Below, piece by piece: positions 6,893 to 13,800 of a stretch of DNA of 64,000 bases. The stretch is from the IMG/VR virus record IMGVR_UViG_3300033121_002354, positions 1 through 64,000 of that record, one strand, 5' to 3'. The notes under the pieces were generated by a model. The model did no database searches. It was not told the origin of the DNA and was given only the letters and a program-made list of their open reading frames with translations. Position numbers and translations under genes: made by a program. Numbering within the stretch: position 1 is the stretch's first letter; each line of letters starts with the position of its first letter. Source of the stretch: a virus (Duplodnaviria > Caudoviricetes).

Positions 6893-7159
6893 ATGGATAT
6901 ATATACTTGCCCATTAAATTACACGTTAAAAGAAGCTTTTAAAGAAAACAGAATACAATCTGGGTATTTATTGTTATTTAAAGATGGAACAAAAATACTA
7001 GTTGGTGATGCAACGTTGTTTCATGCTCCATCTGAATCTGATGCTGGAATTGGATGGGGTGATTTCTGTGATAAAGTAATTGATACAATTATAAAACTTG
7101 ATATACCAAATGTAATATCATACAACAAAAGGAGTAAAAATGAAACATTGAAAATATAA
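6893..7159 (+). CDS. Hypothetical protein
   Basis: 88 aa, AAGGA RBS. Confidence 0.55.
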   Translation: MDIYTCPLNYTLKEAFKENRIQSGYLLLFKDGTKILVGDATLFHAPSESDAGIGWGDFCDKVIDTIIKLDIPNVISYNKRSKNETLKI

Positions 7160-7209
7160 ATCTTTAGAATATAAGATTTTTTTGGAAAATCTAGTATAAT
7201 TATATACAG

Positions 7210-7806
7210 ATGTGGTTTAAAAAATGCCAAGCATTAATGTCTTTAAAGGAACATATTGTTAATGATCCAAATTTCAAGTCGTGGTTTGGAAATAGTAAAG
7301 TAGTAGATAAATTAGGCAAACCATTAATAGTCTATAAAGGAATGTATCCTTATGACTATACTAAAGAAAAACCATTAAAATCTAATCAATATGAATTAGA
7401 TTTCAGTCAACGTGGACCTGAATTAGATACTATAAAACGACCATCACCATTTCCAACATTTGATAAAAAAGATCAAGAACCAGTTAATGTAGCAGGATTT
7501 TTTACGGATGATCCAAAAATAGCTGCAAGTTTTGCATTTACATTTACTAAAGGAGCTGTATTTCCAGTATTTCTAAGAATAGAAAACCCAAAAATATTTG
7601 ATGCCAATGGTGCTCCATCGGGGACACTTCAATTTGAAGCACCTGGGAAACCATTTAGAGATGCTGTTAGAAGTGGACAATACGATGGGGTTTTTATATT
7701 AAATACAAAAGATGAAGGAAATGTTTTTATTCCATTAAAACCCAATCAAATCAAATCTGCAATCCATAGCAAATTTAACTTTAATGACCCACGATTTGCA
7801 TACTAA
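7210..7806 (+). CDS. ADP-ribosyltransferase-like protein (ART-PolyVal type domain)
   Basis: FKSWFGNSKVVDKLGKPLIVYKG...GFFTDDP...VFPVFLRIENP...GQYDGVFI...PNQIKSA follows the ART-PolyVal pattern. Confidence 0.7.
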   Translation: MWFKKCQALMSLKEHIVNDPNFKSWFGNSKVVDKLGKPLIVYKGMYPYDYTKEKPLKSNQYELDFSQRGPELDTIKRPSPFPTFDKKDQEPVNVAGFFTDDPKIAASFAFTFTKGAVFPVFLRIENPKIFDANGAPSGTLQFEAPGKPFRDAVRSGQYDGVFILNTKDEGNVFIPLKPNQIKSAIHSKFNFNDPRFAY

Positions 7807-7905
7807 ATAAAAAAAATATATTAATTTGCGGTCCCAGGAAGGAATTTTTCTTTTTATTCCGAATAGTAAAGTTCCAAGGGAATGTCTCCCTTAAAAGAGA
7901 GTATC

Positions 7906-7974
7906 ATGAACGTAACTAATCCATCTCCGGTTGACTTAGAACGGGAACATCCCGATAGGAGATGGATTATCTAG
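7906..7974 (+). CDS. Leader peptide A (MNVTNPSPVDLEREHPDRRWII); not in ORF track
   Basis: 22 codons after AAGAGAG; in-frame alternative ATG at 7882; stop codon lies within attenuator segment 2. Confidence 0.7.
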   Translation: MNVTNPSPVDLEREHPDRRWII

Positions 7975-8041
7975 GCTTTTTAAGAGCATGTACGCCTTAA
8001 GCCCTGATAATCCTGAATAAAAGGTTATCAGGGTTTTTTTT
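7917..8041 (+). promoter_or_regulatory. Ribosome-dependent transcription attenuator A
   Basis: 1:2 = 7917-7928/7958-7969 (12 bp perfect); 2:3 = 7964-7978/7999-8013 (13 of 15); 3:4 terminator = 7999-8012/8023-8036 plus T8. Confidence 0.75.
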
Positions 8042-8057
8042 GTTCAGGGATAATATC

Positions 8058-8294
8058 ATGAAAAAAATAAAACAAATTTCAGAAAATTATGGAGCAATTC
8101 ATTCTCGTAGAGTTTATCTTTTAGATTGCACCAAAGAAGAAAAACAACAACTAAAAGATGCATTAGCGATGTTTGCTAAAATAGAAAAAATTCTAGGAGT
8201 AAAACGCAAAAATGCAGATTGGACAATGTTGCATAGCTACGGTTTTAATCAAGATGGAGTTTATGTAACAGTAGATCAGGGAGCATGTGGATGA
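8058..8294 (+). CDS. Hypothetical protein
   Basis: ATG at 8058 with AGGGA RBS; first gene after attenuator A. Confidence 0.55.
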   Translation: MKKIKQISENYGAIHSRRVYLLDCTKEEKQQLKDALAMFAKIEKILGVKRKNADWTMLHSYGFNQDGVYVTVDQGACG

Positions 8295-8464
8295 TTAACA
8301 AAGAAAGACCTCAAGCCCTTATTCTGAAAGATGAGGATGGCTCAATTTATAAAGCCATTCATGAGGCTTTGTCAATTGGTCAGAAAGTGTATCTATTAAA
8401 ATATCAGGAAGATTATGTGGATAATATTTTAAAGAATGCAAGACGTATTCTTTCTGAAGAATAA
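8291..8464 (+). CDS. Hypothetical protein (57 aa, not in ORF track)
   Basis: ATGA overlap, GGAG RBS; MINKERPQALILKDEDG...RILSEE. Confidence 0.5.
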   Translation: MINKERPQALILKDEDGSIYKAIHEALSIGQKVYLLKYQEDYVDNILKNARRILSEE

Positions 8465-8477
8465 AAATGAAATTTGT

Positions 8478-8551
8478 GGGGCCGTAGCTCAATTGGTTAG
8501 AGCATCCGCTTGTCACGCGGAAGGTTGCGAGTTCAAGTCTCGTCGGTCTCG
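8478..8551 (+). tRNA. tRNA-Asp(GTC)
   Basis: Full cloverleaf; anticodon arm TCCGC-TTGTCAC-GCGGA; no encoded CCA. Confidence 0.95.
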
Positions 8552-8570
8552 TTTGAAAAGTGAATAATAT

Positions 8571-8644
8571 GCTCCCATCGTCTAGCGGTCTAGGATGCCT
8601 GGCCTTTCAAGCCGGGGGCGTGAGTTCAAATCTCACTGGGAGTA
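8571..8644 (+). tRNA. tRNA-Glu(TTC)
   Basis: GCTCCCA/TGGGAGT; CTGGC-CTTTCAA-GCCGG. Confidence 0.93.
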
Positions 8645-8649
8645 TTCAT

Positions 8650-8720
8650 TGGCTTATGGTGTAACGGTAGCACGGGAGATTTTGAATCTTTTAGTCAAGG
8701 TTCGAATCCTTGTAGGCCAG
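8650..8720 (+). tRNA. tRNA-Gln(TTG)
   Basis: TGGCTTA/TAGGCCA (U1-A72); GGAGA-TTTTGAA-TCTTT. Confidence 0.93.
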
Positions 8721-8724
8721 TTAC

Positions 8725-8797
8725 AGTCTCGTAACTCAATTGGCAGAGTGTCTGCTTTACATGCAGAATGTTACAGGTTCAAGTCCTGTCGAGACTA
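8725..8797 (+). tRNA. tRNA-Val(TAC)
   Basis: AGTCTCG/CGAGACT; TCTGC-TTTACAT-GCAGA. Confidence 0.95.
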
Positions 8798-8802
8798 AAT
8801 AC

Positions 8803-8876
8803 CAGAGCGTAGCCTAGTTGGTTCAGGCACTTGATTTGGGGTCAAGACCACGCAGGTTCGAGTCCTGCCGCTCTGA
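8803..8876 (+). tRNA. tRNA-Pro(TGG)
   Basis: CAGAGCG/CGCTCTG; CTTGA-TTTGGGG-TCAAG. Confidence 0.95.
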
Positions 8877-8878
8877 TT

Positions 8879-8952
8879 GTGACTGTAGCTTAATTGGATA
8901 GAGCACTGCCTTGTGACGGCGGGGGTTGTCGGTTCAAATCCGACCAGTCACC
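8879..8952 (+). tRNA. tRNA-His(GTG)
   Basis: GTGACTG/CAGTCAC, C73; CTGCC-TTGTGAC-GGCGG; base at -1 is T. Confidence 0.93.
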
Positions 8953-9338
8953 TTTAGTTCTTTAAAAGTTGGACGTTTCCATTTTGTTATAGAGTTTGTC
9001 AAGCCGGATTCAGAACTAATTATTGGTGACTTGCCAGTATAAATGGTACTAAATGCAACTTTGATACAATGTTTATTTTCATCGTAAAAGCATTCATAAT
9101 AATCGGAAGTGTTTAAATAGGCAAGTAAACTGGAAATTTGGTCACGTGTAAATACAATGTGTTCAATATATTCAACCCATCCTAAATCGATTCCAATTTC
9201 TGTCTCACTAATCAAACATATCCAAGAGAGTGTTCTATTTGCGAGTTTTTCAAGAGCATCTTTAAAATATTTCCATCTGTTTTCTGGTTCAATTAATTCG
9301 TCCAAAAAATGTGCTATTTTAAAATCTATATTTTCCAT
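8934..9338 (-). CDS. Hypothetical protein
   Basis: 134 aa; GTATAAT-N5-ATG upstream; 3' end overlaps tRNA-His on the opposite strand. Confidence 0.6.
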   Translation of the reverse strand: MENIDFKIAHFLDELIEPENRWKYFKDALEKLANRTLSWICLISETEIGIDLGWVEYIEHIVFTRDQISSLLAYLNTSDYYECFYDENKHCIKVAFSTIYTGKSPIISSESGLTNSITKWKRPTFKELKVTGRI

Positions 9339-9357
9339 GTGTAATTATACATTCTAA

Positions 9358-9449
9358 TACCGGGAGCAAGATTTGAACTTGCGATCTGCTGATTATGATT
9401 CAGTTGCTTTAAGCCACGGTATTCTCAGTTCAAATCGGAGCAGAGACAT
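9358..9449. pseudogene. Two tRNA 3' fragments fused back to back
   Basis: Minus 9358-9415: D-loop GG through ATCATAA loop, T-arm GCAAG-TTCAAAT-CTTGC, TCCCGGT-A. Plus ~9414-9448: CCACG-GTATT-CTCAG-TTCAAAT-CGGAG-CAGAGAC-A. Both lack 5' acceptor strands. Confidence 0.6.
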
Positions 9450-10099
9450 TATAAAACTTCAAGTGCTTTATCAAGCATAATTTTGACTAAGTTGCTATCT
9501 ACCTTTCCTTTAGTGATTTTCATAATTTTCCCTAAAAGAAATGGTTTAATTTTATCTCCTTTTTTTCCTTTAAAGTCTGCAATAGCTTCTGGATTTTCTG
9601 AAATAACTTGAGTTATTATATTAGGTAAATCACTTCTATTTTCTATAAAAAGATTGTATTTTTCTGCTATTTGCATTGGCATTTCTTTTGAAGCTAAACA
9701 TTTTTCAGCGATTATAGCGGCATTTTGTGGAGAAATTTTAGATTCATCAACCATAGATGCTATTTGTATAAAATGATCTACAGACAGTTTAAGTCCACTA
9801 ATTTTGCAGTTTTGTTTTTTGGCTATATTTGTCCAGAATCCCAAAAATTGTTTAATAACTATATTTGGATTTACTTTTGTACACAGATACATAAACAAAT
9901 CTACTGTGTCTAGATCTGTATTTATGACTACAACTTCTTTTTGCGTTAATTTATAGAGATCACATAATTGTTTATCTCTTTGGATTGGAGTTATAAATTT
10001 ATTTTTAGCGATTCTATTTTCTAATGATTCGTATGGTGTTTTTGGGGTAGAATCTGTTAATTCTTTTAATTTATTTTGTAAAAATTCTTTATATTCCAT
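9449..10099 (-). CDS. Stand-alone GatB C-terminal (GatB/YqeY) tRNA-binding domain protein
   Basis: KISPQNAAIIAE...IITQVISENPEAIADFKG...FLLGKIMKITKGKVDSNLV matches the GatB helical/tail region; no catalytic N-terminal domain. Confidence 0.8.
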   Translation of the reverse strand: MEYKEFLQNKLKELTDSTPKTPYESLENRIAKNKFITPIQRDKQLCDLYKLTQKEVVVINTDLDTVDLFMYLCTKVNPNIVIKQFLGFWTNIAKKQNCKISGLKLSVDHFIQIASMVDESKISPQNAAIIAEKCLASKEMPMQIAEKYNLFIENRSDLPNIITQVISENPEAIADFKGKKGDKIKPFLLGKIMKITKGKVDSNLVKIMLDKALEVL

Positions 10100-10116
10100 G
10101 TTTAATTATACTATAA

Positions 10117-10189
10117 TAGTGGCGACTGGAATCGAACCAGTGACTTTTGGATTATGATTCCAATGTTCTTCCAACTGAACTACGCCACT
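10117..10189 (-). tRNA. tRNA-Met(CAT), elongator type
   Basis: AGTGGCG/CGCCACT; TTGGA-ATCATAA-TCCAA; Ile2 identity not excluded. Confidence 0.88.
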
Positions 10190-10193
10190 ATAA

Positions 10194-10281
10194 CTGCGGG
10201 AGTTGGAATCGAACCAACGTGGGAGACAAGCTCCGAACGGTTAACAGCCGTTTGCAGACTACCAACATCTGCGGTCCCGCA
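10194..10281 (-). tRNA. tRNA-Asn(GTT) with long variable arm
   Basis: TGCGGGA/TCCCGCA, G73; AACGG-CTGTTAA-CCGTT; V-arm GGAG-CTTGT-CTCC. Confidence 0.85.
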
Positions 10282-10282
10282 T

Positions 10283-10354
10283 TGGGAATCACCAGAATCG
10301 AACTGGTCTAATCGGTGCTTCAAACCGATGCTCTACCGTCTAAGCTAGATTCCC
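10283..10354 (-). tRNA. tRNA-Phe(GAA)
   Basis: GGGAATC/GATTCCC; TCGGT-TTGAAGC-ACCGA. Confidence 0.92.
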
Positions 10355-10359
10355 GTAAA

Positions 10360-10431
10360 AGCTAACGGTGGGAATCGAACCCACGTAGTCCTGTTTACGA
10401 GACAGGTGCATAACCACTCTGCCACATTAGC
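10360..10431 (-). tRNA. tRNA-Thr(CGT)
   Basis: GCTAATG/CGTTAGC; CCTGT-CTCGTAA-ACAGG. Confidence 0.92.
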
Positions 10432-10437
10432 GTTAAA

Positions 10438-10509
10438 TGGAGCCACAGGGAGTCAAACCCTGAATTTCGCTGTGCAAGAGCGATATTTTATCAGTTAAAT
10501 TATGGCCCC
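10438..10509 (-). tRNA. tRNA-Ala(TGC), divergent D and T loops
   Basis: GGGGCCA/TGGCTCC with G3:U70; TCGCT-CTTGCAC-AGCGA; T-loop TTTGACT. Confidence 0.85.
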
Positions 10510-10513
10510 AAAA

Positions 10514-10586
10514 TTGGTGCGGGTGGAATTGGACCACCGACCTATTTGTTATCAGCAAATTGCTCTACCAACTGAGCTACGCACCA
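10514..10586 (-). tRNA. tRNA-Ile(GAT)
   Basis: TGGTGCG/CGCACCA; ATTTG-CTGATAA-CAAAT; T-loop TCCAATT. Confidence 0.9.
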
Positions 10587-10659
10587 AGTGAGTGATGGGA
10601 GTCGAACCCATATGATTTTGCTTGGCTAGCAAATGCCTGACCAATTAGGCTACACTCAC
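10587..10659 (-). tRNA. tRNA-Gly(GCC) with A33
   Basis: GTGAGTG/CACTCAC, U73; TTTGC-TAGCCAA-GCAAA. Confidence 0.8.
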
Positions 10660-10664
10660 AATAC

Positions 10665-10692
10665 CGGGCACGAAAGGATTCGAACCTTTTGC
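10665..10692 (-). pseudogene. 3' fragment of split tRNA (probably Ser)
   Basis: AAAGG-TTCGAAT-CCTTT-CGTGCCC-G; acceptor strand pairs with GGGCATG at 11596-11602. Confidence 0.8.
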
Positions 10693-10702
10693 AAAAAAAA
10701 AA

Positions 10703-10791
10703 CGGCGTGAGAAGGATTCCAACCTTCAAATCACTTTTGTGATCCGTCGAATAGCAATCGACTTCCCCGCAGCAATGAGGACAGTCACGCC
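10703..10791 (-). tRNA. tRNA-Ser(GCT), divergent
   Basis: GGCGTGA/TCACGCC, G73; GTCGA-TTGCTAT-TCGAC; long V-arm GATCAC-AAAA-GTGATT; atypical D-arm and T-loop TTGGAAT. Confidence 0.8.
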
Positions 10792-11510
10792 ATATTGATT
10801 AGTTCTTTTTTTCCAAATGTTCCATTTTTCATGCCGTAAATTTCGTTTTTACGTAATACTATTAATTTGTGCGGAAAATACAACCATTTTGCTCTGTCCT
10901 TTTCTGTTGCATATCCTTTAACTTCTATATAGCATTCTAAATCTTTTATAAAAAAATCTGGAGTGTAAAATCTGTATTTCCCATCAAAATAGTAAATAAA
11001 TCTATTTTTGTTGCGTTGCCAATAAAACGCCCATTCATCTAAACTTTGTGCAGTTTTTAATTCCCATGTTCCATCTACCATTATTTTTCCTGCAATCTGG
11101 CTATTGTATTCTATTTTTTTGCACCTTCCAGCTTTAGGCAACCATCCTGCAGCATATCGCTTGTTTATTGACTCGCTAATTTTTTGACACCTTTCTTTTT
11201 CTTTTTCAGCAGTCTGTCCTAGACCAGAGCATCGACCGCGTAAAGCGGCAGACATTTTTTCTCTAATTTCTTTTGCTCTTTCTGATCCATAAGATTCTTC
11301 ATAACTCTTACCTTTGTTTGGTGGCTCTTTTCCTAAACGTGGTCTATGAGGCTCAGTTTTGTTTTTAAGGAATAGAGGAATATGCCCTTTTTTACTCTCA
11401 CTATCTTTTTTCCTTTTTGCAGGGCATTTATTTACATTTTCAGAGCAACAATAATTTCCATTTTTAAATTGGTGAATCGCGTCTAATCCACAACCATAAT
11501 TACACTTCAT
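10785..11510 (-). CDS. Putative homing endonuclease (NUMOD-like DNA-binding region plus PD-(D/E)XK domain)
   Basis: N-terminal CNYGCG...CCSE..CP; PPNKGKSYEESYG.ERAKEIREKMS; FYTPDFFI...YIEVKG. Confidence 0.75.
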   Translation of the reverse strand: MKCNYGCGLDAIHQFKNGNYCCSENVNKCPAKRKKDSESKKGHIPLFLKNKTEPHRPRLGKEPPNKGKSYEESYGSERAKEIREKMSAALRGRCSGLGQTAEKEKERCQKISESINKRYAAGWLPKAGRCKKIEYNSQIAGKIMVDGTWELKTAQSLDEWAFYWQRNKNRFIYYFDGKYRFYTPDFFIKDLECYIEVKGYATEKDRAKWLYFPHKLIVLRKNEIYGMKNGTFGKKELINMA

Positions 11511-11512
11511 TA

Positions 11513-11543
11513 GATTCTCCTAAAACATATTATTAGGAGAATC
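11513..11543 (-). promoter_or_regulatory. Hairpin sequestering the endonuclease RBS
   Basis: GATTCTCCTAA-9 nt-TTAGGAGAATC, perfect 11-bp stem ending 2 nt before ATG. Confidence 0.75.
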
Positions 11544-11567
11544 GTTTAAATATCCTGTATAAATATT

Positions 11568-11602
11568 CAAACTGCTGGTTTCACCCGCTCACCCACATGC
11601 CC
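11568..11602 (-). pseudogene. 5' fragment of split tRNA (probably Ser-GCT)
   Basis: GGGCATG-TG-GGT-GAGCGGGTGAA-ACC-A-GCAGT-TTG, breaking in the anticodon loop. Confidence 0.8.
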
Positions 11603-11605
11603 AAA

Positions 11606-11693
11606 CGGATGGAGGAGGAGTCGAACCCCCAAACCCCCTTTCAGAGATTGTCGCTTTTCAAAAGCGGTGGGCCTGCCAATGCCCAATCCATCC
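11606..11693 (-). tRNA. tRNA-Ser(TGA)
   Basis: GGATGGA/TCCATCC, G73; CGCT-TTTGAAA-AGCG; long V-arm. Confidence 0.9.
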
Positions 11694-11699
11694 AGAAAA

Positions 11700-11783
11700 T
11701 GCACAGTGATGGACTCGAACCACCGCAGCCCCGAAGGGCATCTGAGATACAGTCAGACGCAATTGCCGCTCTGCCAACTGTGC
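11700..11783 (-). tRNA. tRNA-Tyr(GTA)
   Basis: GCACAGT/ACTGTGC; TCTGA-CTGTATC-TCAGA; V-arm GCCC-TTCG-GGGC. Confidence 0.9.
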
Positions 11784-11811
11784 AAAATATATTCACTTTT
11801 TAAAGATCTAC

Positions 11812-11882
11812 AGACACAGGTGAGAGTCGAACTCACGATCACAGTTTTGCAGACTGTTGCCTTGCCACTTGGCTACTGCGTC
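11812..11882 (-). tRNA. tRNA-Cys(GCA)
   Basis: GACGCAG/CTGTGTC, U73; ACAGT-CTGCAAA-ACTGT. Confidence 0.95.
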
Positions 11883-11889
11883 AGTACAC

Positions 11890-12033
11890 AAAAAAAGCCC
11901 CGATAAACTTTTTTGTTTACCGGAGCTTGCTGTGCCTTTGTGATTTCAGCCAATCTACATTAGGCGTAGCTCCGGTGCGTTAGTGGCGGCGTTATTACCG
12001 CAACTATACCCTGTAAATGAGCTACACATAATG
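11890..12033 (-). promoter_or_regulatory. Ribosome-dependent transcription attenuator B
   Basis: 1:2 = 12019-12033/11958-11972 (14 of 15); 2:3 core ACCGGAGCT 11968-11976 / AGCTCCGGT 11919-11927; 3:4 terminator 11915-11928/11895-11908 (14 bp) plus T7, ending 7 nt before tRNA-Cys. Confidence 0.85.
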
Positions 12034-12050
12034 GACTGCTGACGTTTCAT
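11955..12050 (-). CDS. Leader peptide B (MKRQQSIMCSSFTGYSCGNNAATNAPELRLM); not in ORF track
   Basis: 31 codons; ATG 6 nt after a -10 box; composition mirrors the downstream tRNAs. Confidence 0.82.
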   Translation of the reverse strand: MKRQQSIMCSSFTGYSCGNNAATNAPELRLM

Positions 12051-12056
12051 GCTTGT

Positions 12057-12085
12057 ATACTACCCTATTTTTCGTCCTGGGGCAA
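12057..12085 (-). promoter_or_regulatory. Sigma70-type promoter of leader B / tRNA operon
   Basis: TTGCCC-17 nt-TAGTAT-6 nt-ATG (leaderless). Confidence 0.65.
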
Positions 12086-12320
12086 GTAAAATCCTTTAAA
12101 AATTTTTGAACATCTTTTGATTTTATTTTTCATCTATTTTATATTTCGAAGATGAAAAAGATAAATATTGATGAGTTAAGCGATTTTCGTGGAACTTTAG
12201 GAGAGTTTAGAAGAATCGTAAATCGACTTATAAAAAAATATGGAACAGAATCTAAGATCGAATTTGACGCTGGATATAACAATGTAGAAGTTCTTATACA
12301 GACAGAAAAAAAGGAATAAT

Positions 12321-12707
12321 ATGGAGTTAGACCCAATTATAGAAGAATGTCGTGATCTTTTAAAAGATAATAAATATGAAATAACAGAGAATGGTCTTAC
12401 ACTCACTGTGATTATGCATATGTCTTTGCCAAAATTAAGAGCAGACATAAGAGACGTTCATTTTAAGGGTGATTTTAATAATTTCTTATTTCCATCTATT
12501 TTAAGCACTATAAACATAAGAATAGTAGGACAGGGTTTGGAAGAAACGATATTAAAACTTAGTGGTTTTAAAGAGCGTGTTAAGAAGTTCAAAAAGAAAT
12601 TAGGAGAAGTTGCATTTGCTTATGATGAAAAAAACTGGGATCAGGTCCGTAATATGGTTGTAGATAAAGCAGTTAACTTGCATCAAAAATCAATGGGATA
12701 TGTATAG
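12321..12707 (+). CDS. Hypothetical protein
   Basis: 128 aa, AAGGA RBS. Confidence 0.6.
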   Translation: MELDPIIEECRDLLKDNKYEITENGLTLTVIMHMSLPKLRADIRDVHFKGDFNNFLFPSILSTINIRIVGQGLEETILKLSGFKERVKKFKKKLGEVAFAYDEKNWDQVRNMVVDKAVNLHQKSMGYV

Positions 12708-12908
12708 TTAGTCTATATATCTTATATTTGGGCAAGGAGGTTCATTGTGGCTTTTGGCATATATTTATTATGTTTAATTGATTTTGGGATATTAGCAGCT
12801 TTGTGTGGTATTTTGTATTTTATGTGGTTATTTTATACAAAGATTTTCAATCAAGATGGGACAATAGATATTTCTGAAGTTTTTCCTACGAGTTGGTTAA
12901 TGAAATAA

Positions 12909-13367
12909 TTACTCATTTTCTTTTGCCACTAAATTCCAGCCATTATTATATGAGTAATAAGAGATTATGTCCTCTTGTACAACTTTAATCAACGTACAAG
13001 ATGACATGGGTACAGTAATGCAGCATATGCTTCCTTGTTGCGGAAGCATATCAAAATATGTCAGTTTACCATTATCGTATTTTACTGTTATGCTAAAATC
13101 GAAAGGATTTTTGTTTCTAGTAACATTTTCGTAGGAATGAAAATACCCTGCTTTTTCTTCATATTCTGAGTGAGAAGGACATTTCTCTGGCAGATTAAAA
13201 CATAGTTTTTCATCGCCATGAAACAACGTTACATCTGTTTCCCTAAGAGAAATAAGGAAGTGAGCCATTTCCTTATGACTCATTCCTTTAACTGTATTAG
13301 CTGCAGCTTTTGGTATTTGTGGTACAGCTAACGCTACGCTGGTCGCTATAAATTCTCTTCTGTTCAT
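12909..13367 (-). CDS. Hypothetical protein with Tat-like signal
   Basis: MNRREFIATSVALAVPQIPKAAA; GAGGT RBS. Confidence 0.65.
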   Translation of the reverse strand: MNRREFIATSVALAVPQIPKAAANTVKGMSHKEMAHFLISLRETDVTLFHGDEKLCFNLPEKCPSHSEYEEKAGYFHSYENVTRNKNPFDFSITVKYDNGKLTYFDMLPQQGSICCITVPMSSCTLIKVVQEDIISYYSYNNGWNLVAKENE

Positions 13368-13416
13368 CTTAACCTCTTTGGGTGGAATTGTTGCGGTTTA
13401 ATCGTATAATATGTGT

Positions 13417-13800
13417 ATGAAAACATTCATATGCAACTTATGTGGAAAGAGACATCGTTTAACCAGAGAAGATACATGGGTCCATAAGTGTGGTCTTGTG
13501 GTAGTTGGCACTAAATATGACAAAAGCACTATAGTTGAAGATCGCACTTTTGAATTCAAGAAAGTAACATTCTATCAAGAACAAGATAGAGCTTCCATGA
13601 ACTCGTTATTTGTAGAGTTAGTAAAACGGGGAGCCAATCCAAAGGAATTGTCTATTGGGTGTGGCAATCCGTTTTATGGCAAAATATACAACAAAACTCT
13701 TGTTGTTCATACCAATGAGAACTTGGCAATTCCGTTGTTCTGGGATGATTTCGTAGTATTAAAAGAGCCAAGTCTTGAAATAACAGACTTATACGACTAG
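13417..13800 (+). CDS. Hypothetical protein with N-terminal zinc ribbon
   Basis: CNLCG...HKCG; ATG 6 nt after TATAAT. Confidence 0.6.
   Translation: MKTFICNLCGKRHRLTREDTWVHKCGLVVVGTKYDKSTIVEDRTFEFKKVTFYQEQDRASMNSLFVELVKRGANPKELSIGCGNPFYGKIYNKTLVVHTNENLAIPLFWDDFVVLKEPSLEITDLYD

Follow-up and report, generated by a model that had tools for sequence, protein, structure and literature searches.

A putative leader-peptide attenuator whose core spells the amino acids of a phage tRNA array

Is the transcription of a phage tRNA array governed by the translation of a short open reading frame (ORF) in front of it? The question is raised by a compact cassette of about 200 nt, here called leader B, in which a promoter-like site, a short ORF and a set of alternative RNA helices follow one another on the strand of the tRNA genes. 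The window analyzed covers the first 64 kb of an IMG/VR virus record with a length of 113 kb. We regard it as probable that leader B is a ribosome-mediated (leader-peptide) transcription attenuator placed before a phage tRNA operon, and the phage would then probably make the tRNAs of this array only when a shortage of them stalls ribosomes.

Genomic context of the tRNA arrays

The record is classed as a "provirus" and has a CheckV completeness of 23% and a GC content of about 35%. It encodes a PolIII alpha subunit, a DnaB-like helicase, a UvsW-like helicase with an intein and many glycosyltransferases, together with several proteins of 1,100 to 2,500 residues that have no family assignment. 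This gene content therefore indicates a fragment of a very large uncultured phage. The UvsW-like helicase, at 80851 to 83148 of the record (plus strand), is split by its intein (Intein_splicing, 3.2e-18).

All 17 tRNAs that ARAGORN recognizes in the record are located in two convergent arrays, array A at 8477 to 8952 on the plus strand and array B on the minus strand:

10116 to 11882, minus strand: array B, downstream of leader B (ARAGORN, Rfam tRNA matches, endonuclease PHROG match)

Array A is composed of Asp, Glu, Gln, Val, Pro and His tRNAs. Array B lies on the same strand as leader B and, according to ARAGORN, contains 11 tRNAs for 10 amino acids, in the order Cys, Tyr, Ser-TGA, an endonuclease ORF, Ser-GCT, Gly, Ile, Ala, Thr-CGT, Phe, Asn and Met, where the tRNA with the CAT anticodon is taken as Met by default.

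The endonuclease gene (10785 to 11510, minus strand; PHROG endonuclease, 3.4e-14) separates the two Ser tRNAs and is preceded by an AGGAG ribosome-binding site of its own. At 88 nt and with a long, paired variable arm, the tRNA-Asn (GTT anticodon; 10194 to 10281, minus strand) is unusual for a tRNA of this kind. Directly after tRNA-Met comes the gene of a stand-alone GatB_Yqey-domain protein without a catalytic domain (9449 to 10099, minus strand; Pfam, 6.5e-24), which probably belongs to the same operon as array B. In a search of 5.8 billion protein clusters, this GatB-like protein proved to be a singleton and had no homologue of comparable length. On the 3' side of its gene, and on the strand of array B, a 63-nt tRNA-like sequence is found (9358 to 9420, minus strand) that has a CAT anticodon and a reduced D-arm, matches the Rfam tRNA family with 33.3 bits and was missed by ARAGORN. 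It may be a second Met tRNA, a tRNA of the Ile2 type or the decayed copy of a tRNA.

In both arrays the spacer that comes first (Asp-Glu, 8553 to 8570, plus strand; Cys-Tyr, 11811 to 11785, minus strand) is unusually long, 17 to 27 nt compared with 0 to 5 nt for most of the others. Both of these spacers share the motif TTTNAAAAGTGAATAWWWT, which abuts the next tRNA and is too near to it to be its promoter; it may be a processing or binding site. A scan of IMG/VR with this first-spacer motif gave chance matches only, with the exception of two sites upstream of tRNA-Val.

A short ORF behind a promoter-like site

12057 to 12085, minus strand: promoter-like site of leader B, TTGCCC-N17-TAGTAT (sequence; putative promoter function)
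11955 to 12050, minus strand: ORF of leader B, 31 codons and a TAG stop (sequence)

On the minus strand, TTGCCC (12085 to 12080) is followed by a 17-nt spacer, by TAGTAT (12062 to 12057) and, after a further 6 nt, by an ATG at 12050. The ORF that begins here encodes the peptide MKRQQ-SIMCSSFTGYSCGNNAATNA-PELRLM and ends with the stop codon TAG at 11957 to 11955; the first tRNA of array B begins 72 nt past this stop. An earlier sequence-only reading of the locus had proposed a promoter of the form TTGCCC-N17-TAGTAT with the ATG 6 nt later, and an ORF running from MKRQQ to PELRLM between 12050 and 11955. Both proved correct when the coordinates and the translation were checked again on the minus strand.

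The promoter-like site agrees with the sigma-70 consensus at 8 of 12 positions, which is weak by sigma-70 rules, and was missed by a promoter scan. With 6 nt between the -10-like hexamer and the ATG, the mRNA would have little or no 5' leader. No Shine-Dalgarno sequence is present before the ORF of leader B. Among the long ORFs of the phage, 22 of 71 carry such a sequence, against a background of 8%.

The peptide core and the amino acids of array B

11976 to 12035, minus strand: roster core, codons 6 to 25 of leader B (translation compared with the ARAGORN tRNA set)

Residues 6 to 25 of the leader B peptide read S I M C S S F T G Y S C G N N A A T N A and comprise all ten amino acids of array B and no others. 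All ten are already present in codons 6 to 21, upstream of segment 2 of the helices described in the next section. The length of this run depends on the tRNA that is taken as Met: if the CAT anticodon belongs to a lysidine-type Ile tRNA, M8 falls outside the set and the run is cut to 17. The match of the 20 core residues with the 10 amino acids of the 11 tRNAs had been noticed from the sequence, and it was upheld by the ARAGORN predictions, by enumeration of amino-acid sets, by a scan of the whole record and by shuffling.

In the six-frame translation of the 113-kb record, the run of leader B is the longest that stays within the set, and the sole one of at least 14 residues that includes all ten amino acids. 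A single 20-residue window out of 225,960 lies wholly in the set, and this window is the leader B core. When the peptide is held fixed and all sets of ten amino acids are enumerated, 1 of 184,756 gives a 20-residue run, which is the set of array B itself. The chance that a window is entirely in the set and also has all ten amino acids present is 1.7e-7, assuming independent and identically distributed residues at the amino-acid frequencies of the long ORFs of the phage. For the set match of leader B, the per-locus p is about 5e-6, a value that needs a discount because the scan examined very many windows; one coincidence of such size somewhere among them is conceivable. Nucleotide shuffles of the ORF produced a run of at least 20 residues, in any frame, in 2 of 100,000 cases, and base composition is therefore no explanation of the match.

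The correspondence does not extend to codons. By standard wobble, the anticodons of array B can read 14 of the 20 codons in the core, where the amino-acid identities and the codon usage of the phage lead one to expect 13.6, which means that the core has no codon-level enrichment over the amino-acid level. The codons outside the reach of the array are Thr ACA and ACU, GGG, GCC (twice) and TCC, and stalls at these codons could therefore not be relieved by the array. The sequence-only reading had cautioned that the match is one of amino acids and that the CGT anticodon does not read the Thr codons ACA and ACT; this holds, and more widely than was claimed. Most amino acids of the set occur once or twice in the core, as single or few codons without runs, and specificity would therefore need deep tRNA depletion, not mild starvation. 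Most classical leaders use runs of regulatory codons. Several rare codons are also present in the ORF.

Three mutually exclusive helices in leader B

11946 to 12042, minus strand: helix 1:2, predicted anti-antiterminator or pause hairpin, from codon 3 to just past the stop (RNAfold)
11919 to 11976, minus strand: helix 2:3, predicted antiterminator (RNAfold)
11890 to 11928, minus strand: helix 3:4, predicted intrinsic terminator with a 14-bp stem, a 6-nt loop and T7 (terminator scan, RNAfold)

The three helices that the sequence-only reading had given for leader B are all present in the RNAfold output. Helix 1:2 has a free energy of -39.8 kcal/mol (z -4.8), and 0 of 200 shuffles were as good. 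Helix 2:3 is built on a perfect 9-bp stem, ACCGGAGCU/AGCUCCGGU, to which the inner pairings GCCU/AGGC and UGU-A-GAUU/AAUC-ACA are added, and it reaches -24.3 kcal/mol (z -3.9 against dinucleotide shuffles). The 3' strand of this helix is the 5' arm of the terminator. Helix 3:4 has -19.8 to -20.1 kcal/mol (z -7.4), and no other terminator-like site in the region ranks above its 14-bp hairpin with T7. The last T of this tract is at 11890 and tRNA-Cys begins at 11882, which confirms the distance of 7 nt given earlier; this distance leaves no room for another promoter. As a whole, the 174 nt of leader B have a folding energy of -67.5 kcal/mol (z -6.9), and the predicted fold consists of the terminator and a long hairpin internal to the ORF. 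An upstream complement of the 5' arm longer than 6 nt occurs at 1 of the 14 strict terminator-like sites of the record, that of leader B. The structural evidence at leader B is independent of the amino-acid match.

Helix 2:3 had been expected to compete with helix 3:4, and it does so, both in energy (-24.3 compared with -19.8 to -20.1 kcal/mol) and by forming in nascent RNA. In the nascent transcript, as long as segment 4 is still missing, a 30-nt ribosome footprint on any of codons 1 to 16 lets 2:3 form fully; with no ribosome on the RNA, 1:2 prevails and 2:3 is not formed. With footprints past codon 16, the model closes 1:2 around the ribosome, which is sterically implausible; by simple geometry, the antiterminating zone would reach approximately codon 20 to 21, with the leading edge of the ribosome at segment 2. 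The UAG is located 11 nt after the segment-2 core, and a ribosome with this codon in its A site covers about half of that core and the inner 2:3 helices. Start, stop and sensing codons of leader B are placed as a classical attenuator needs.

In the full transcript, enforced-pair folds put the 2:3 state 3 to 4 kcal/mol behind the 3:4 state, and a similar ordering of the 2:3 and terminator states is seen in the trp attenuator. The equilibrium fold of the full transcript with a ribosome mask always kept 3:4. Because the outcome of attenuation is settled during transcription, this fold was not used as a test, and the folds of nascent RNA and with enforced pairs were taken as the relevant ones.

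A sister cassette and a common upstream motif

7826 to 8041, plus strand: sister cassette, leader A (sequence, RNAfold)

A second cassette of the same build, leader A, lies ahead of array A. It comprises an upstream motif (7826 to 7843), the hexamer TAGTAA (7864 to 7869) and a 30-codon ORF (7882 to 7974, plus strand), as well as a 12-bp 1:2 helix, a 2:3 helix formed by GGAUUAUC/GAUAAUCC, and a terminator with T8 at 8001 to 8041. As in leader B, the 2:3 helix uses the 5' arm of the terminator; the stop codon comes directly after segment 2, and the 2:3 and 3:4 states are isoenergetic. Between the terminator and the tRNAs of array A there are two small ORFs. The enrichment of leader A for the amino acids of its own array is weak (9 of 12 in the best window, with p of about 0.015 to 0.05 by set enumeration).

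Both leaders display the motif TTGC(N0-3)CCCAGGA[AC]G[AG]A, at 7826 to 7843 on the plus strand and at 12085 to 12071 on the minus strand, with TAGTA[TA] 6 to 12 nt before the ATG. In the 113-kb record, the motif is found only at the two leaders (0.07 expected per window), and CCCAGGA occurs nowhere beyond them on either strand. With this common build and motif, the two cassettes thus look like copies of one design, and both are probably read as leaderless or nearly leaderless mRNAs. A search of IMG/VR with the common motif gave 12 matches, 0 of them next to tRNAs. One of these, at positions 10351 to 10380 of an unrelated contig, is nearly the same element (TTGCCCCAGGACGAA...TAGTAT), and the gene behind it is one that we take to be an aspartate decarboxylase (panD-type). 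The motif and TAGTA[TA] may together represent a promoter type of this phage group.

The gene that ends 76 nt before leader A (7210 to 7806, plus strand) encodes a stand-alone ART-PolyVal ADP-ribosyltransferase domain protein. It has 40 metagenome homologues with 28 to 80% identity (E <= 0.001), and none of those examined adjoins tRNAs.

Relatives and control loci

The contigs of four runs contained only a source-like run and a wastewater strain with about 98% identity, the latter at low depth. In the wastewater run, a 161-nt contig retains codons 1 to 16 of leader B unchanged, and the strain differs at 12051, just upstream of the leader B ATG. At leader A, the same strain shows a 13-nt difference inside the leader (7912 to 7924), and the 260 nt with a 78-codon ORF behind the terminator (8040 to 8301, plus strand) are swapped for 40 nt.

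A divergent homologue of leader B was found neither in INPHARED nor in IMG/VR nor through searches for relatives of proteins of the record. Comparison of the locus with the INPHARED phage collection by blastn returned tRNA-level matches only, and IMG/VR scans with the GatB-like protein, proteins of 128 and 532 residues and PolIII alpha returned nothing. With PolIII alpha as the query, tblastn detected no cultured relative above 34% identity. There were no tRNAs in the flanks (up to 10 kb per side) of a 51% relative of a 1147-residue protein or of relatives of a 570-residue phosphatase with 40 to 48% identity, nor near relatives of the ART-domain protein with 44 to 65% identity. No RNA runs containing the locus are listed.

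About 35 tRNA blocks from Vibrio phage EniLVp02, phage phi92 and six large IMG/VR contigs served as controls, and none of them has a set-matched ORF upstream. The pattern is therefore no general by-product of the surroundings of tRNA genes, nor do all phages have it. Other phages (IMG/VR contigs) often carry a hairpin and a T-run immediately ahead of a tRNA gene, so the terminator alone is no evidence of attenuation. An Rfam cmscan of positions 7000 to 13500, with E up to 1, detected no cis-regulatory leader or T-box at either leader; the matches in this region were the tRNAs and, overlapping with tRNA genes, weak YrlA and Plastid-ycf2 matches below the threshold.

Proposed mechanism

If leader B acts as an attenuator, transcription would start at or just before the ATG at 12050. 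Where no ribosome is loaded, or where the ribosome reads through to the UAG, segment 2 would be engaged in 1:2 or covered by the terminating ribosome. Segment 3 would then pair with segment 4, and RNA polymerase would stop at T7, 7 nt before tRNA-Cys. A ribosome stalled at approximately codons 5 to 21 would instead occupy segment 1, and 2:3 (-24 kcal/mol) would form before segment 4 is made; the terminator would be blocked, and the polymerase would enter array B. Codons 6 to 21 spell each of the ten amino acids at least once, and synthesis of the entire tRNA set would therefore be expected to rise when any of them is decoded slowly. This would amount to a multi-input negative feedback on tRNA supply, in which the shortage sensed in vivo could be one of amino acid, of charging or of tRNA level.

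More tentatively, and with some doubt on our part, the leader may be a roster sensor of damage to the tRNA pool, in which the loss of any of ten host tRNA species would call up replacement tRNAs, and which would be general in a giant-phage clade. Its triggers could be host anticodon nucleases, phage-induced decay of host tRNAs or a mismatch in codon demand, and the composition of the leader would track the content of the array as a general rule in that clade.

Alternative explanations

Each of the three alternative helices is strong by itself, as would be expected of a terminator/antiterminator RNA switch that works independently of translation, with a protein, a tRNA or a small molecule stabilizing 1:2 or 2:3 and with an ORF that is incidental. 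The ligand could be, for example, the GatB-tail tRNA-binding protein of the same operon, and the presence of a GatB_Yqey-domain protein there is in keeping with this idea. So are the lack of a Shine-Dalgarno sequence before the ORF and a codon-level match that does not exceed what the amino acids alone would give by chance. We nevertheless consider such a switch unlikely, as it leaves unexplained both the exact match of ten amino acids and the placement of start and stop codons that fits a ribosome-driven switch, and no T-box or other Rfam cis-regulatory family appears at E up to 1. That leader B is an independent gene of about 165 nt for a structured RNA, with its own promoter and terminator, or a 5' stabilizer, the array being reached by constitutive partial read-through and the peptide being coincidental, is in our judgment rather less likely still. 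In its favor, small RNAs derived from attenuators exist, for example rnTrpL (PMC6614838); terminators just upstream of phage tRNAs are common, and very many windows were scanned. Against this stand the 9-bp complement of the terminator 5' arm, which is unique among the terminators of the record, the same build at the second array and the set match, with its undiscounted per-locus p of about 5e-6.

The behavior of the folding model, in which any slow ribosome in codons 5 to 21 gives 2:3, would also be compatible with a leader that senses general translation capacity through ribosome-polymerase coupling, of the pyrBI type, and not ten specific amino acids. Single codons per amino acid would provide weak specificity, and the several rare codons in the ORF fit in with this. 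General coupling sensors, however, need no particular composition, and the exclusion of the ten other amino acids from the core would go unexplained; we hold this to be very improbable.

The reading that we prefer remains that of a leader-peptide attenuator. If it is true, the decoding speed of a test message would set the supply of its decoders, in a direct feedback loop with ten inputs at once, and this would explain the timing and dosing of tRNA arrays in large phages. It bears on the arms race around tRNA-cleaving defenses, and it predicts that leader composition co-varies with array content across phages.

Comparison with known attenuators and tRNA operons

Attenuators of enterobacteria include the trp, his, leu and phe leaders, and some are multivalent, such as the ilvGMEDA leader (Ile, Leu and Val) and the thr leader (Thr and Ile). 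Like these, leader B has a short ORF between a promoter-like site and the first gene, the alternative helices 1:2, 2:3 and 3:4 and a hairpin-plus-U terminator, with the stop codon beside segment 2 and the putative regulatory codons spread across segment 1 and the loop of 1:2. As in the ilv and thr leaders, more than one amino acid would be sensed. Unlike the enterobacterial leaders, which precede genes for biosynthesis or charging enzymes, leader B has as its targets 11 tRNAs, an endonuclease and a GatB-tail protein. It samples ten amino acids, mostly one to three times, whereas the enterobacterial leaders contain runs of one to three amino acids. Moreover, it is phage-borne, probably leaderless, and matches no Rfam leader family.

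The pheST operon of Escherichia coli, which encodes phenylalanyl-tRNA synthetase, has an attenuator with the pheM leader. It resembles the proposed function of leader B in that leader-peptide attenuation acts on a component of the translation apparatus, with feedback on the decoding of cognate codons, and differs in that a single amino acid is sensed, the target codes for a protein and the operon is cellular. T-box riboswitches bind uncharged tRNA directly, by means of a specifier codon and the T-box motif, and need no translation. The likeness lies in a terminator/antiterminator control that reports on the state of tRNA; a T-box match is absent from the two leaders.

To our knowledge, no tRNA genes have been shown to be under leader-peptide attenuation, and full-text literature searches returned no paper that joins tRNA arrays with leader peptides or attenuation. 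The target class of leader B is new, and no curated leader family includes it.

Two further systems can be compared with leader B. The trn operon of Anabaena sp. PCC 7120, the nearest published system, is induced by stress, and the direct repeats of its promoter are bound by the repressor TrcR; the papers on this operon mention neither a leader peptide nor attenuation (PMC8421152; PMC10272220). There, as would be the case for array B, a supernumerary tRNA array is silent and is switched on when translation is impaired, but in Anabaena the control is exerted at the promoter. In mycobacteria, leaderless short ORFs with polycysteine are reported to act as attenuators (bioRxiv 10.1101/834739). They are, like the proposed leader B, leaderless short ORFs that serve as amino-acid sensors for the genes downstream, and unlike it they respond to one amino acid and have protein-coding targets.
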